Virus record (IMG/VR): IMGVR_UViG_3300043429_001367
Coordinates: 1 to 55,610 of that record
Length of the DNA stretch: 55,610 bases
Strand: one strand, 5' to 3'
Source: a virus
Taxonomy: Duplodnaviria > Caudoviricetes
The translations under genes and the position numbers were made by a program. Under the pieces are notes generated by a model. That model searched no databases, was not told the origin of the DNA, and worked only from the letters and a program-made list of their open reading frames with translations. Positions 2,154 to 42,179 of this stretch are shown here, piece after piece; within the stretch, counting starts at the first letter, position 1, and every line of letters starts with the position of its first letter.

Positions 2154-2263
2154 TGCACATGAACGGGATCAACCATAAGGATACGCTGTTTATGTTTGAC
2201 GACATGAGAAAGGAAGCCTTGATGATTTTAGGTGAAACGCATGATTATAACGGACAAATTTAA
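2069..2263 (+). CDS. hypothetical protein
   Basis: ATG 2069 (MLEWFLDNQQIW...), overlaps terL start. Confidence 0.45.
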   Translation: MLEWFLDNQQIWKDQSLSDEDKDKIRFLMHMNGINHKDTLFMFDDMRKEALMILGETHDYNGQI

Positions 2264-5200
2264 ATCATATTCCCTATTCACCGATGAGGAACTTCAAAAC
2301 AGTATCGCTCAGGATATCGACAATATGAGCGAGGCTGAGCGTGCGGTGTTTTTTGAACTGCTTAACAATCCTCAGTTTGAAGGGGATTTGACCGCACTGG
2401 AACTTGATCGGGATATGGTATCGGTTGAGCAGTGGATTGAAGATGATTACTACATGGGAGCCTTGGGCAAGAGCATCTATAAGCCATGGAAGGATGATCT
2501 TCTTGAACTCTTTGAATCATGTGCCTACGACACGGCTGTCATTCAAGGGGGTATTGGCTGTCAAGCCGAAAAGACGCAGATTATGACAGACAGTGGATTG
2601 ATTGCGATGGGGGATCTAACCTCATCACACAAATATCTGTCTTACGACAATGGTAAAGCTAGATTTGTGCAAGGCACACACGCTTTTGTAAAAGGCAAAG
2701 ACATGCTTTACAAGGTAAGGCATGCCTCTGGTGAATTTGAAGCTACAGCACATCATAAGGTTTTATGTGCTGATGGTTATTACAGGCGTGTTGATCAGCT
2801 TGCTGATGGTATGCAGATTGTTTCGAGCGATAAATTTCAAGATGATGTTTCATGTGATCTTTCTGTGACGAAAACACTTCGAGGTTTTCTGGATCATTGT
2901 TTCTTGGATTCTCATCTATGTGATGAACTACTTCAGTTGGCAAAAGATATCGGTCAAGTTTCTTTTCCATCACAAGTCGATGCTCAGGCATTGTCAGCTT
3001 TTTACCGTAAAGTGGATGCTCCTTTGGAACACTCACTTTTACATACTCAGTCCTGGTCTTTCCTCCCGTCCAAAAAGGGTTTTTGGAACCCTTCGGTGGA
3101 CCGGCTTTTCTTTGATTCAGACCTTGCCTATGCAAAAATTTTTCAACAGAGTTATGGGATCTTCCAACGGATGTTGCAATCTCGGAAAGTGGATGTCCTG
3201 CCTCGTATAGCGCAAGCACTTTCTCTTTTTGTTCAGAAGACATTCCCCGAGGATTTGCAACGCCTTTACGTCCCCCTTCTGAACGCCTTGGTAAATCATT
3301 TTTCAAAACATAACGAATCACAATATCAGGTGAAGGACGGCCAATCGCTTTCATTATCTCTTCATAGGATTTTTGTCCGTCTGATAGCTCATGGATTTGT
3401 GCTTTCTCGTTCTCGGTCAAAGGCTTTTGAAAATAGGGCAGGTCAAGCTTGCGAACCCAGGCTCTCACCGTCTCAGGCGATTTCCCAATTACTGTTGCGA
3501 TGTCGTCAATCTTTGTTTGGAAAGAGGCCATTTTCTTTATCGTGTCTATCTGCTCTTGGGTTAATTTCAAACTCACTTGATTCTGTCTCCTTTGGTTTTT
3601 CCAAAGTAATGTCGATAGAAAAAACAGTTACAGATTGGTATTGGGATTTGCAAGTGCCAATGACCAATAATTATGTGTCAGGTGGTGCGGTGCATCACAA
3701 TTCAGGTAAGTCAACTTTTTCACACCTTGCCGTTTTGAGGATGCTCTATGAAGCATCTTGTCTCAAAAATCCGGCTGTCAGCTATGGCCTTGCTCCCAAC
3801 TCCATCATTGGTTTTTGTTCACTGGCAAAATCCAAGGAAACCGCACGGCGGGTTGTGTTTGAGCAGATTGCTGCGAAGATTCAGGAGTCGCCTTATTTCA
3901 AATATGAGTTTGCGCCTGTCAAGGATGTGAAGGATGAAATCATATTCCCAAAGGGACTTGCAATCATTTGCGGTTCATCAACGGACACATCCATCATCGG
4001 TATGAACATCTTCGGTGGAATCATCGACGAAGTGAACTTCTGGGGAAAGGTGAAAAAGACCAACCTCAATTTTGGAAAGCACTGGGGAACGGAAAGCAAG
4101 TCAGGTAGGCTCTTTGATAGCGTTCGCCGAAGGATGAAGTCGCGCTATATCAAAAAGGGAAAACTCCCTGGCATCCTGATGCTTATCTCATCGAAGACAA
4201 CCAAGGACAGTTTTACTGAGCAGTTCATCAGAAAAGAAAAGGCTCTCGGCAATAACTCCACCTTTGTCCGTGACCGCTCAATTCTTGACATGAAGCGTGA
4301 CAGCTTTGGCAGTAACACCTTCAAGGTCCTGATCGGAACCGTGGACTATCCCTCGCGTATCCTCATAGAAGGTGAGGATATTTCAAATCTGACTGATGCC
4401 ATGGTCATTGAGATTCCCGATGATTTCCGTGTGGACTTTGAAAACAACCTGGAAGAGTCGCTGCGTGATATTGCGGGTGTTTCAACCATTGCCATATCCA
4501 ACTTCATTTCCAAACTTGAAAAAATCAACGAGATGGTTGACGACAGGTCCCATCCTTTCCAGTGTCCGCTTCTGCCTGATCCAACCATTTGGGATAGCCG
4601 CAAGCCATACAAAATCAACTGGCATGCGCTCTGCACTCAAAAGGACAACGGTGAATGGGTTCCGAAACTCAATCCCGATGCACCACGTCATGTCCACTTC
4701 GATCCGGCTTATACGGGTGACGCCTTTGGTCTTTGCATTGCGCACATCGGGGGAATGCAGGCCGTTCAGAAGGAAGGTGAGATAATCGAGTATCAGCCTA
4801 TCTTCATCGTCGATTTCATTCTGGCCATACAGGGAAGCAAGGAAGAGGAAGTCATTAACCGCAATGTGCGGGAACTCTGTTATGAGTTTTCCAATCATGG
4901 ATTTCATTTGGCTGAGTTCTCAATGGATACTTATCAGTCAAGGGAAATGGCTCAAAGCCTTGAGATGCAGGGCTACAAGGCAGGCATCTACTCGGTCGAT
5001 ACGGGGATTTCAAGCAAGGGTGAGAACGTTGTCAATACAGCGGTCGGCAAGGTTCCAAAAGCGAAACAGGCTTATTGGTATTTGCGCTCTGCCATATATG
5101 AAAATCGTGTCAAATGTTATGATTATCCAAGACTCCTGATGGAACTGAGGAAACTGGAAGACACGCCTGAGAAGGTGGATCATCCCGAGGGAGAAAGCAA

Positions 5201-5516
5201 GGACTTGGCTGATTCACTGTGCGGTGTGGTCTGGACTCTTTTCAGATCGAAAAACCATGCGGAACTGCCTTTGCCTTCAAAGGGTGTGACAGTGAATCCC
5301 GGCTCCGAGGTGGAAACTCTTGCGGACTATGCGGAAAGTCTGAAGCAGGATATGTCAGTTGAAGCGGGTTCAAGTCAGGTGATCGAAATCAGGCAGACAA
5401 AGGTTTATGAGAAAAAGAAGCATCAGACCGTGTCACCGAAGTATCAAAAGGTTTCGACCAATGGCACAGTCAAGGACCTGACCATAAACACCGAGGACTA
5501 TCTGGTTCGCGGCTAA
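2232..5516 (+). CDS. terL: terminase large subunit, intein-containing (about 713 aa after splicing)
   Basis: Walker A GGIG/SGKS split by intein, Walker B GGIIDE, nuclease motifs HFDPA, MDTYQS, KVDHPEGESKDLAD; followed by portal. Confidence 0.93.
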   Translation: MKRMIITDKFKSYSLFTDEELQNSIAQDIDNMSEAERAVFFELLNNPQFEGDLTALELDRDMVSVEQWIEDDYYMGALGKSIYKPWKDDLLELFESCAYDTAVIQGGIGCQAEKTQIMTDSGLIAMGDLTSSHKYLSYDNGKARFVQGTHAFVKGKDMLYKVRHASGEFEATAHHKVLCADGYYRRVDQLADGMQIVSSDKFQDDVSCDLSVTKTLRGFLDHCFLDSHLCDELLQLAKDIGQVSFPSQVDAQALSAFYRKVDAPLEHSLLHTQSWSFLPSKKGFWNPSVDRLFFDSDLAYAKIFQQSYGIFQRMLQSRKVDVLPRIAQALSLFVQKTFPEDLQRLYVPLLNALVNHFSKHNESQYQVKDGQSLSLSLHRIFVRLIAHGFVLSRSRSKAFENRAGQACEPRLSPSQAISQLLLRCRQSLFGKRPFSLSCLSALGLISNSLDSVSFGFSKVMSIEKTVTDWYWDLQVPMTNNYVSGGAVHHNSGKSTFSHLAVLRMLYEASCLKNPAVSYGLAPNSIIGFCSLAKSKETARRVVFEQIAAKIQESPYFKYEFAPVKDVKDEIIFPKGLAIICGSSTDTSIIGMNIFGGIIDEVNFWGKVKKTNLNFGKHWGTESKSGRLFDSVRRRMKSRYIKKGKLPGILMLISSKTTKDSFTEQFIRKEKALGNNSTFVRDRSILDMKRDSFGSNTFKVLIGTVDYPSRILIEGEDISNLTDAMVIEIPDDFRVDFENNLEESLRDIAGVSTIAISNFISKLEKINEMVDDRSHPFQCPLLPDPTIWDSRKPYKINWHALCTQKDNGEWVPKLNPDAPRHVHFDPAYTGDAFGLCIAHIGGMQAVQKEGEIIEYQPIFIVDFILAIQGSKEEEVINRNVRELCYEFSNHGFHLAEFSMDTYQSREMAQSLEMQGYKAGIYSVDTGISSKGENVVNTAVGKVPKAKQAYWYLRSAIYENRVKCYDYPRLLMELRKLEDTPEKVDHPEGESKDLADSLCGVVWTLFRSKNHAELPLPSKGVTVNPGSEVETLADYAESLKQDMSVEAGSSQVIEIRQTKVYEKKKHQTVSPKYQKVSTNGTVKDLTINTEDYLVRG
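2559..3701 (+). mobile_element. intein (381 aa) in TerL Walker A
   Basis: Block A CQAEKTQIMTDSG, block B ATAHHKVL (TxxH), block F WYWDLQVPMTNNYVSGG, block G VHHN then Ser+1; removal restores GGIGSGKS. Confidence 0.95.
2743..3576 (-). CDS. HNH homing endonuclease with three HTH repeats, antisense inside the intein
   Basis: HNH core EHRLVMEKKLDRYLLPTEVVHHIDENPRNNDPENLEV; GSKNPFWTGG linker; three HTH-like units; AAAGGAG SD 10 nt before GTG. Confidence 0.9.
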   Translation of the reverse strand: MSLKLTQEQIDTIKKMASFQTKIDDIATVIGKSPETVRAWVRKLDLPYFQKPLTENEKAQIHELSDGQKSYEEIMKAIGRPSPDIVIRYVLKNDLPRRSEGGRKGVANPRGMSSEQKEKVLALYEAGHPLSEIATSVGRSHNSVEKFLHRQGLNQRKAGPPKGSKNPFWTGGKTRTEYVKVSVPKEHPLYGKKLTMPEHRLVMEKKLDRYLLPTEVVHHIDENPRNNDPENLEVFSSQKDHMKHHLEIYRSKQSAYHQQADQHACNNHQHIKPYDVL

Positions 5517-5553
5517 AGTGAACTTGAGTTCACTCGAATGGAGAAAAATTGAA

Positions 5554-40554: not shown

Positions 40555-40575
40555 TAAGCATCATGGAGGATACCG

Positions 40576-42018
40576 ATGCAAGCCAAGAATTTTATGCGTC
40601 AAAATCGTTCGATCAAGGATGAAGGCTACGTTCAGGCACTTGTGCGCAAGTGGAGTCCCTTGCTGGAAGGCATCAACGTTGAGCATACGCGCAACGTTAT
40701 GGCTGTTCTCTATGAGAACCAAAGCCAGCATCTTCAGTCCATGACTGAAGAAACACGTTCGACCAACGTGGGCTCGTTTTTGAAATTTGTGTTTCCCGTT
40801 CTTCGCCGGGTTTGGCCTTCTCTCATCGCCAATGAGATTGTGTCGATCCAGCCAATGACCGCACCAATCGGCGGTATCTTTTACTATGACCTGAAGTACG
40901 GCACCACAAAGGGCACCGTGACTGCTGGCCAGACTCTGATCAAGGATTTCAATCGCTACTATTCGAGCGAAAAAATTGATGCAGAAATCATTGGCACTGG
41001 TGCGGGCACCAGCTTTGCATCGACGCTGGACTTTACTCCTGTTCGCGTTTCGACCGTTATCGTCAAGGGCTACAAAGGCACCGATGGCAGCCTTGTATCC
41101 GGCGCTGACAACGGCTCGGGCACAATCACAGGAACAGGCGTTTCCGGTATCGTTGATTACGATACTGGCTCCATCTCGGTTGACTTCACAACTTCCGTAA
41201 GTGCAGGAACTGATGTAACTGTCACCTACGAATACAATAGTGAGTGCAACAGCAACATCGCTCAAATCAACATCGACATCCAGCTGCTGGAAATCCGCGC
41301 GACCACTCGCAAGCTGAAAGCAAAGTGGTGTTCGGAAGCTGCTGACGACTTGAAAGCTTTCCATGGCATTGATGCTGAAGCTGAAATCGTTGCTGGTATC
41401 GCTGCTGAAATCGCTTTGGAACTCGACCGTGAAATCATCGAGGATCTTCGTGTTGGTGCGACTGGCTACAACGGAAGCTTTGCAGCTTCTCCTGTTCCGA
41501 ACTACCACACTCAGGTTGATCATTATCGCAACATCCTGACCGAAATCACCAAGATGAGTAACCGCATCCACAAGAATTCTTTGCGTGGTCCTGCGAACTT
41601 CCTTGTGACTTCGCCTGATGTGTCTGCGATCATCGAGCAGCTGGAAACTCATGGTGACTTCCGTCCCATCTATGCTCCTGCAAACAGCGACACACGCGCA
41701 CCTGCAGAGCAGCCACACACCTTCGGTGTTCAGAAGATTGGTACTCTTTCCAGCAAGTATATCTGCTACAAAGATCCATTCTTCCCAGTTTCCTCGAACG
41801 TTGGTTCGGGAAGTGGTTCCGGTCAAATCCTCGGTGGTTACAAAGGTTCGACCTTCATTGATGCAGGTTATGTGTGGGCTCCATACATTCCTCTGCAATC
41901 GACTGCGACCTTCCTTAACCCTGAAGACTTCGCATTCACCAAAGGCTTGCGCACACGGTATTCTAAAAAAATGGTTCGCTCGGAGTTCTATGGAACCATC
42001 ACTGTTACTGGCCTTTAA
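40576..42018 (+). CDS. major capsid protein (T4 gp23-like)
   Basis: KWSPLLEG, VSIQPMTAPIGGIF, RKLKAKW, EIALELDREII, DAGYVWAPYIPL, GLRTRY. Confidence 0.95.
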   Translation: MQAKNFMRQNRSIKDEGYVQALVRKWSPLLEGINVEHTRNVMAVLYENQSQHLQSMTEETRSTNVGSFLKFVFPVLRRVWPSLIANEIVSIQPMTAPIGGIFYYDLKYGTTKGTVTAGQTLIKDFNRYYSSEKIDAEIIGTGAGTSFASTLDFTPVRVSTVIVKGYKGTDGSLVSGADNGSGTITGTGVSGIVDYDTGSISVDFTTSVSAGTDVTVTYEYNSECNSNIAQINIDIQLLEIRATTRKLKAKWCSEAADDLKAFHGIDAEAEIVAGIAAEIALELDREIIEDLRVGATGYNGSFAASPVPNYHTQVDHYRNILTEITKMSNRIHKNSLRGPANFLVTSPDVSAIIEQLETHGDFRPIYAPANSDTRAPAEQPHTFGVQKIGTLSSKYICYKDPFFPVSSNVGSGSGSGQILGGYKGSTFIDAGYVWAPYIPLQSTATFLNPEDFAFTKGLRTRYSKKMVRSEFYGTITVTGL

Positions 42019-42039
42019 TTCCCTATAGAGGGAAAAGCA

Positions 42040-42071
42040 GCCGGGAGCTAAACACTCCCGGCATTTTTTTT
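42040..42071 (+). terminator. intrinsic terminator after the capsid gene
   Basis: GCCGGGAG-7-CTCCCGGC then A and T run. Confidence 0.85.
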
Positions 42072-42179
42072 GTGTGCTTCCATAAGCTTTGATCAAAAAA
42101 TCGGGCAAACTTCAATCCCCAGCCTATTTCTGATATCCTTTCCCCATGTTGCTTTTCTGAGGCTTCTGTTTGCTAATCT

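Follow-up and report, generated by a model that had tools for sequence, protein, structure and literature searches.

Normally the endonuclease slot of an intein is filled by an in-frame homing-endonuclease domain. Here we analyse an intein in terL, the phage gene for the terminase large subunit, whose slot appears to be taken by a separate gene on the opposite strand that encodes a helix-turn-helix (HTH) and HNH nuclease. The intein lies at 2559-3701 of IMG/VR record IMGVR_UViG_3300043429_001367, a metagenome-assembled viral contig with an estimated completeness of 23%. We refer to all 55,610 nucleotides (nt; 55.6 kb) of this stretch as the window. An earlier note, made from the letters of the window alone, knew of no described case of such an arrangement. 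This has to be corrected, as antisense LAGLIDADG and VSR-like intein endonucleases are described in the accessible text of a recent preprint (bioRxiv 10.1101/2025.01.02.630785).

Antisense LAGLIDADG endonucleases are found in the DnaX intein of Synechocystis and the SpoVR-like intein of Chloroflexus (Gorbalenya 1998; Gogarten 2002, both as cited in the accessible text of bioRxiv 10.1101/2025.01.02.630785). Compared by description only, they share with the window a nuclease open reading frame (ORF) on the opposite strand, in the slot between the splicing blocks, with both frames open; they differ from its HTH-HNH gene in belonging to the LAGLIDADG family and in residing in cellular host genes. 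In the same preprint, Gosselin, Arsenault and Gogarten describe actinophage inteins that hold antisense VSR-like genes or frame-3 genes resembling endonuclease VII. Their survey counts 63 non-canonical inteins among 784 and, in the text accessible to us, lists HNH only in-frame. That text proposes that free-standing nuclease genes were captured, with signs of continued transfer; according to it, the predicted structures of the in-frame interior are unrecognisable, and such inteins are perhaps far commoner than reported. The actinophage inteins thus described resemble the window in that they belong to phages, in many cases lie within terL, have the nuclease in another frame or strand and have an unstructured in-frame interior. 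The window type differs in its antisense HNH_3 and HTH gene, in its occurrence in uncultured freshwater and other phages and in Pectobacterium phages, and in keeping one register over dozens of lineages.

Three further systems are related in part. The in-frame HNH inteins described in 1997 have the association of HNH with an intein in common with the window, but there the HNH is part of the intein polypeptide. Fractured genes (Dassa et al. 2009, PMC2677866, in its accessible part) likewise have a separate nuclease gene in place of the intein endonuclease domain, whereas host gene and intein are split into two trans-splicing ORFs and the nuclease is of another family; the window is not fractured, its terL being a single ORF of 1094 amino acids (aa), and 77 of the best 80 relatives are likewise continuous. 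I-HmuI, from a group I intron of Bacillus phage SPO1 (PDB 1u3e), is a phage homing nickase with an added DNA-binding domain, as the window HNH protein seems to be, and has the closest solved core; it is intron-encoded, weakly similar in sequence and equipped with different DNA-binding modules. The window intein fits the definition of an antisense-endonuclease intein, its nuclease ORF lying between the splicing blocks on the other strand and the extein/intein frame being uninterrupted, and its HNH_3 nuclease with HTH units falls outside the described antisense types, LAGLIDADG and VSR-like. No antisense HNH in an intein was found in the literature searched, including the accessible text of Kelley et al. 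2016 (PMC5050341), a search that left subscription journals and supplements mostly outside. Antisense intein nucleases are therefore already known as a class, while for an antisense HNH, and for a family as large as the one below, we found no report.

We interpret the locus as a composite homing element made up of a Hint intein and a separately translated antisense HTH-HNH nuclease, and assign this reading a probability of about 0.8. Its parts are as follows, in window positions:

2232..5516, + strand: ORF of the terL precursor, 1094 aa with the intein counted in; PHROG family phrog_2, 'terminase large subunit', at 1.8e-13
2559..3701, + strand: class-1 intein, 381 aa, in Walker A (GGIG/C ... 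HHN/SGKS, a slash marking a splice junction)
2559..2840, + strand: Hint N-lobe with blocks A and B, intein residues 1-94; AlphaFold pLDDT (predicted local distance difference test) of 81-96 per 10-residue block
2841..3581, + strand: 'shadow' linker (intein residues 95-341), i.e. the HNH gene read from the + strand; free of stops, with no confidently modelled fold and no family match
3582..3701, + strand: Hint C-lobe with blocks F and G, ending in HHN, residues 342-381; pLDDT 78-94; Pfam Intein_splicing positions 118-155
2743..3576, - strand: HTH-HNH endonuclease gene, 277 aa plus TAG, GTG start at 3576; wholly inside the intein
3587..3593, - strand: Shine-Dalgarno (SD)-like AAAGGAG, 10 nt upstream of the GTG
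2824..3057, - strand: predicted catalytic core of HNH type (putative beta-beta-alpha-metal fold), residues 174-251 of the HNH protein; Pfam HNH_3 covers residues 199-240
3127..3576, - strand: three HTH units, HNH protein residues 1-150; HTH_38 at residues 110-150
2743..2840, - strand: C-terminal tail of the HNH ORF, overlapping the Hint N-lobe up to the first stop; pLDDT of the last two blocks 72 and 57

The TerL ORF reads ...VIQGGIG/CQAEKTQIMTDSG...GEFEATAHHKV...DWYWDLQVPMTNNYVSGGAVHHN/SGKSTF. Since the insert-free relative L007, with a C-extein 58% identical to that of the window, has GGIGSGKS at this place, an uninterrupted Walker A, the 381 residues at 2559-3701 represent an insertion in the Walker A loop. 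The portal gene starts directly after terL, at 5518, and a blastn search of GenBank phages with terL returned no match. The earlier note had recognised a TerL intein with its splicing blocks here, and this was borne out by the terminal residues and by the fold. The N-terminal nucleophile Cys at 2559 stands right after GGIG and is invariant among eight relatives. In the same eight, H66 of block B, which reads ATAHH in the window, is invariant, its Thr being replaced by G or S in some of them, and so are H379, H380 and N381 of the C-terminal HHN/S at 3693-3704. At E<=1e-3, a Foldseek search with the intein model retrieved 38 solved structures of inteins or Hint domains. The list was headed by the Ssp DnaB and Mtu RecA mini-inteins, with a root-mean-square deviation (rmsd) of 1.5-1.6 over 96-98 columns; the Ssp DnaB mini-intein 6frg aligned at E 6.2e-7 with an rmsd of 1.5 over 96 columns. 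Intein_splicing was the sole Pfam match of the + intein stretch, and no PHROG family (0) was matched. Judged from sequence, the two Hint lobes should excise the whole insert from the TerL precursor.

On the opposite strand the note had placed a 277-aa HNH gene with an AAAGGAG SD, a GTG start and a TAG within block B. ORF coordinates, Pfam and PHROG all agree with this; the stop is the complement of gCTAca, within the codons for ATAHH. In Pfam the protein matches HTH_38 at 8.8e-11 and HNH_3 at 2.8e-8 with 33.7 bits (cut-off 24.8), and a six-frame Pfam search places HNH_3 at 2854-2982 with 36.5 bits. Profile searches of both frames thus gave HNH_3 and HTH_38 on the - strand and only a sub-threshold Intein_splicing match on the + strand. 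The best PHROG matches are HNH families (4.6e-19), with 'transcriptional regulator, D5-like' matched as well (3.4e-15). The GTG start is supported by the alignment of the HNH N-terminus with the database protein P0006. An AlphaFold model built from an alignment of 27 relatives has a mean pLDDT of 86.6. The threefold HTH that the note had read is present in this model as three-helix units at residues 7-43, 55-92 and 114-150, but only the third passes the Pfam cut-off, so this part of the description stands for the structure and not for the family assignment of the first two units.

The core of the modelled nuclease consists of strands at residues 180-235 followed by a helix at 238-270, with pLDDT 91-98. 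H219, N231 and H241 do not vary among the 27 sequences, and H199 and N227 hardly do; by analogy we take H219, N231 and H241 to be the catalytic residues. Superposition of the core on I-HmuI (1u3e_M) with VIA-align gave a Z of 5.7, under the tool's secure level, with an rmsd of 3.5 over 71 residues at 28% identity. This value is only suggestive of a resemblance between the predicted core and the I-HmuI fold. A profile search against the PDB reached I-HmuI only at E 0.45, phmmer of the HNH protein against the PDB found no match, and Foldseek of the whole model returned only helix-turn-helix proteins, at E>=5e-3. In the tail of the gene, the position of the stop differs among relatives (intein nt 62, 104, 62 and -22 in the four loci L011-L014), and the tail is probably not functional. 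Because the tail over the Hint N-lobe varies in its end point and is modelled with low confidence, each strand can be described as one real part plus one 'shadow' part. In L014 (84-830, - strand) the usual stop is lost, and the frame continues beyond the N-terminal end of the intein into N-extein codons.

The two frames are coupled by their register. The first position of an HNH codon lies opposite the first of a TerL codon, the second opposite the third and the third opposite the second, and a + stop arises wherever an NTT, NCT or NTC codon of the HNH gene precedes an A-starting codon. The earlier note had stated this rule and that the combination never occurs; the rule is correct for the register, and the absence of the combination is far from chance expectation. 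Among the 278 codons of the gene 46 are risky and 82 start with A, and 0 + stops are seen vs 13.6 expected by codon shuffling. None of 20000 shuffles (0/20000) reached zero, nor did any of 20000 synonymous redraws of the same HNH protein (0/20000), which carry 14.3 + stops on average. The remaining two + frames over the same 834 nt contain 8 and 15 stops. Phe followed by an A-starting codon is the sole case with no synonymous escape, and this dipeptide class is absent from the HNH protein. These results support the view, also put forward in the note, that selection on the choice of HNH codons keeps the + frame open.

To see which frame selection acts on, variable sites were counted by + codon position (1/2/3) in L011-L014, which are close enough for gap-free counting. 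The counts are 12/42/12 in the HNH core, 16/10/32 in the Hint N-lobe, 2/0/14 in the Hint C-lobe and 18/6/115 in the C-extein. Since HNH wobble falls on + codon position 2, substitutions follow the wobble pattern of the HNH frame within the interior and that of the + frame elsewhere. Pairs of these loci share 128-134 of 140 HNH residues over the same 420 nt vs 105-129 of 140 + residues. This shows that purifying selection acts on the HNH frame in the interior and on the + frame beyond it. For the window's own lineage the comparison was at the protein level only, with P0001, a TerL 78% identical across the whole intein. Identity in the + frame is 74% in the interior vs 96% in the N-extein, 93% in the C-lobe and 92% in the C-extein, and by parsimony 37 of 62 one-step + changes in the interior are unambiguously silent in the HNH frame.

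The + interior itself, intein residues 95-341, is modelled by AlphaFold with pLDDT 27-56. It matches no family in Pfam or PHROG and has no invariant column among the eight relatives. Its composition had been described beforehand as rich in L, S, F, Q and R and free of motifs, and we found these five residues to make up 50.2% of the 247 aa vs 27.6% of the C-extein, a richness expected from the reverse reading of a K/E/G-rich gene. The models thus support the view that the + interior is not a folded domain; the note had listed a match to a real folded domain as a result that would refute its reading. A profile of the + interiors matches 157 representative proteins at E<=1e-3 among 1.84 billion, mostly proteins of 700-830 aa with the match near residues 130-290; not each of them is confirmed as an intein.

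A protein search with the intein region returned five proteins, P0001-P0005. P0001 is the TerL introduced above, P0002 is 36% identical over 98% of the intein, and P0003, P0004 and P0005 belong to other terminase families and have inteins of this kind that are shorter. By eye, P0001 also bears a second insert of ~400 aa, which starts with C and ends in HN/C, at a downstream site matching AYTGDAFGLCIAHIGG of the window TerL; the window TerL is without it, and close relatives thus differ in their intein load. A scan of viral sequences with the window HNH sequence alone yielded no relative, and relatives surfaced in alignment-based scans. With the intein alignment 8 viral and 10 metagenome loci were found; 7 of the 10 metagenome loci were examined, L016, L017 and L019 being left out because their contigs are exactly as long as those of L009, L010 and L013. 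In contigs of prokaryote genomes the same scan matched 25 pattern stretches, of which 0 were confirmed.

An antisense HNH gene lies in the intein interior in 8/8 viral and 7/7 examined metagenome loci. The embedded nucleases are homologous, with 31-44% identity between groups, and all five relatives tested (5/5) pass the HNH_3 cut-off. The seven loci tested for register (7/7) share a single one, with 0 + stops vs 4.0-16.6 expected. An SD and a start codon precede the HNH gene in three of four groups, i.e. in the window, L008-L010 and L015, the last four having AGGAG or AGGAGG before ATG. The note had proposed a two-strand element with a conserved HNH gene, and both halves of this proposal held, the wobble flip in L011-L014 and the homologous HNH in 15/15 related loci; a lack of conservation, which it had listed as a result that would speak against the element, was not observed.

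The nuclease profile was then run against IMG/VR, where at least 594 stretches matched and 538 were confirmed as relatives, the best 80 of which were analysed. Among these best 80 of 538, 77 are nested antisense in a frame that stays open over 523-2116 aa, without exception in the same register; the design recognised by the note recurs in IMG/VR. The 77 fall into 67 clusters at 90% identity and contain 0 + stops vs 449 expected by shuffling over 10861 codons. In none of the best 80 (0) does a sense frame of >=450 aa contain the HNH, the maximum being 404. There are three exceptions: L086 and L098 are free-standing with a zinc-ribbon-like N-terminus, and L040 is unclear, at a contig end. In L040 the HNH (2-265, - strand) is not in a long antisense frame, and near it, at the contig end, is a short Hint-N-like fragment (324-1028, + strand); the locus may represent a form that is broken or split.

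The flanks in the nested relatives are Walker A motifs, of the form G/C...HHN/SGK[ST] or GK/C...HHN/T. Pfam was run on 10 of the 77 host frames. L031 and L048 match Terminase_6N and Terminase_6C, L059 matches Terminase_6N below threshold and L041 matches Terminase_3; L043 and L095 have sub-threshold matches to SMC_N and TraG-D_C, respectively; L030, L033 and L065 match Intein_splicing only, and L038 has no Pfam match. These and the preceding comparisons place the same intein, HNH and register in three terminase families or more, and probably also in P-loop proteins of other kinds. The arrangement therefore appears to be inherited as a unit from an older founding event and not to have arisen in the window terL. 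Origin by backward insertion of a free-standing gene into a mini-intein is plausible.

The design also occurs in cultured phages. The top tblastn matches in GenBank phages were seven Pectobacterium phages and one Dickeya phage, with 39-41% identity over HNH residues 110-243, which take in the last HTH unit and the greater part of the HNH core. In Pectobacterium phage Ymer (OP748252.2, record 2451-4715) the HNH is antisense within a coding sequence (CDS) of 754 aa directly upstream of the portal gene. The CDS reads VAGFG/CVHPHTKV...HIHHN/TGKS, and it is matched by both Hint hidden Markov models (HMMs; 5e-31 and 7e-17), with the HNH ORF in the same register. It is annotated as 'hypothetical protein', and the nested HNH ORF is unannotated. 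In the accessible text of the paper on these Pectobacterium phages (PMC11445585) the large terminase was annotated by hand, and the words 'intein', 'HNH' and 'homing' are absent. Since plaque-forming Ymer carries the design in the ORF at the terL position upstream of the portal gene, the insert is compatible with a working terminase. Viable phages with the design in an essential gene indicate, indirectly, that the long linker would not prevent splicing.

The occupancy of the Walker A site is patchy. L002, L003, L005 and L006 (71-75% C-extein identity, with 75% for L002 and its near-copies and 71% for L006) have a different, canonical intein of ~400 aa at the exact GGIG/SGKS site, L007 (58%) has no intein, and L008 (57%) has an HNH-type intein. 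With Intein_splicing, the canonical intein of L002 reaches 50.7 bits and that of L006 55 bits; the interior of this canonical type is a region like an in-frame endonuclease, which in L006 matches LAGLIDADG_3 weakly. Such a distribution fits mobile inteins, as far as sequence comparison goes. In L007 (6144-7157) a portal-like ORF enters CLTGDTLIPLLDGSHKPIRELADE at the contig end, which looks like the start of a portal-gene intein. Contigs of another study bridge both extein-intein junctions of the window (X5 records 15 and 18). None among these other-study contigs joins 2558 to 3702, as an intein-less allele would, and X3, X4 and X8 leave most or all of the interior uncovered. One contig in X3 has a diverged stretch of similar length instead of the intein. 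One contig in X5 tracks the window to 2557 and then continues in unlike sequence, exactly at the insertion point; this contig, diverging at 2557/2558, may be another allele at the same site.

Taken as a composite mobile element, the locus consists of two genes on the two strands of one stretch of DNA. The class-1 intein breaks terL in the Walker A loop, and its Hint lobes would remove the insert from the precursor. The endonuclease slot is occupied by the - strand gene, which has its own putative ribosome-binding site and encodes a predicted nuclease of three HTH units and an I-HmuI-like HNH core. The + reading of this gene, the 247-aa linker, would need only to stay stop-free and to permit splicing, and its openness is secured by HNH codon choice, with NTT, NCT and NTC codons, and Phe, never placed before an A-starting codon. 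The nuclease would nick or cut the intein-less Walker-A coding DNA of co-infecting relatives, and repair would then copy intein and nuclease gene together (homing). We infer antisense transcription and translation, splicing competence, the target site and homing from this model; separate expression of the nuclease is suggested by the SD, the start codon and purifying selection, and its homing role, by analogy with I-HmuI-type enzymes, is the most likely one.

Several observations weigh against this interpretation. The Pfam Intein_splicing scores of 25.1 and 27.9 bits are below the gathering score of 35.8, and the match is split by the 247-aa insert; the long insert is probably the reason for the low score. 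Our narrow Hint HMMs match both lobes in only 61/77 host frames, and in L107, and L043 gives no match. In L011-L014 the conserved ATG is not preceded by an SD, and a sigma-70 consensus scan of 2300-4100 on both strands found 0 promoter-like sites, a weak result as the consensus may not be that of the host. The census is biased by a query profile built largely from embedded genes and by keeping the best 80 of 538, and for this reason 77/80 overstates how often HNH_3 enzymes as a whole are nested. The zero stop counts hold by construction wherever a locus had already been classed as open, and 77/80 is the informative figure.

The HNH ORF could be a decaying relic, which would leave a large mini-intein with a junk linker and a nuclease no longer made or needed, and the absence of a promoter-like site and the variable length of the C-terminal tail among relatives would suit this idea. 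An unselected antisense ORF would, however, gather stops, and 77 of the 80 relatives are intact; substitutions focus on the HNH wobble position (12/42/12), the catalytic H, N and H are invariant in 27 sequences, and SD and start codon are kept in three of four groups, which makes decay very improbable. The nested HNH could also have been co-opted by the phage, e.g. as a terminase-associated HNH factor in cos packaging or, through its three HTH units, as a DNA-binding regulator. The D5-like PHROG match (3.4e-15) would agree with a regulator, and many phages have an HNH endonuclease beside the terminase genes (PMC3592412, accessible text). We nevertheless consider co-option improbable. The gene travels with the intein and not with terL, close TerL relatives being without it or having another intein, the same intein-HNH pair occurs in Terminase_6-type and Terminase_3-type frames and in frames with weak SMC_N or TraG-D_C matches, and the nearest solved relative of the core is an intron homing nickase, I-HmuI.

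A different question is whether the + interior is itself a selected domain, for instance a novel endonuclease or DNA-binding module, so that the stretch would be truly dual-coding. The + frame is open in all members, and the interior profile finds 157 representative proteins, but a conserved antisense gene alone would yield those matches. With pLDDT 27-56, no invariant column, no Pfam or PHROG family and + codon position 2 as the most variable one, true dual coding has hardly any chance of being right. Finally, an assembly or inversion artefact, or an invertible segment that puts the HNH in frame in its other orientation, might be suspected in a metagenome-assembled contig estimated to be 23% complete. 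Independent contigs span both junctions, the same layout is present in 77 other contigs and a cultured phage genome, no inverted repeat was found bracketing the HNH gene, and 0 of the best 80 relatives have the HNH in a sense frame of >=450 aa (maximum 404). We give an artefact next to no credence.

With the composite homing element as the preferred reading, we lean, if only slightly, towards a wider one. In it, an HTH-HNH clade of hundreds of copies would live almost only antisense in Walker-A-targeting inteins, its single register going back to one founding event. The pair would have hopped between terminase families, and probably to other P-loop ATPases, via the conserved Walker A. It would form the largest known family of obligately two-strand-coded mobile elements, overlooked since gene callers report one ORF. 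Antisense intein nucleases, treated as rare oddities, would then appear to be the normal way of life for one HNH lineage. The locus also offers a natural experiment in dual coding, with one strand selected as protein and the other only for being stop-free and splice-compatible, and with a signal that flips at domain borders. It lends support to the idea that inteins gain nucleases by capture of free-standing genes, and it bears on host-gene switching of intein-nuclease pairs through shared nucleotide-binding motifs. It points to a systematic annotation gap in which one ORF of each pair is dropped, and provides compact HTH-HNH enzymes, with Walker-A coding DNA as their presumable recognition sequence. 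Phages of the Ymer genus, among which Abuela, Koroua and others also gave HNH matches, would be a tractable laboratory system.

Some observations concern catalogued proteins and another gene of the window. Among the closest 'HNH proteins' in the database, P0006-P0037, Phe is followed by I, M, T, N or K only in P0029 and P0035; in more distant HNH homologues this is common, with 87/467 Phe overall. P0030 bears a tail motif that mirrors the Hint N-lobe. Many catalogued free-standing HNH enzymes may, to judge from such sequences, really be nested in inteins. Elsewhere in the window, the major head protein gene (40558-42015, + strand; phrog_138, 2.5e-65) is fully overlain by a 516-aa open frame on the opposite strand (40564-42111, - strand), which matches no PHROG family and may be a chance product of codon bias.

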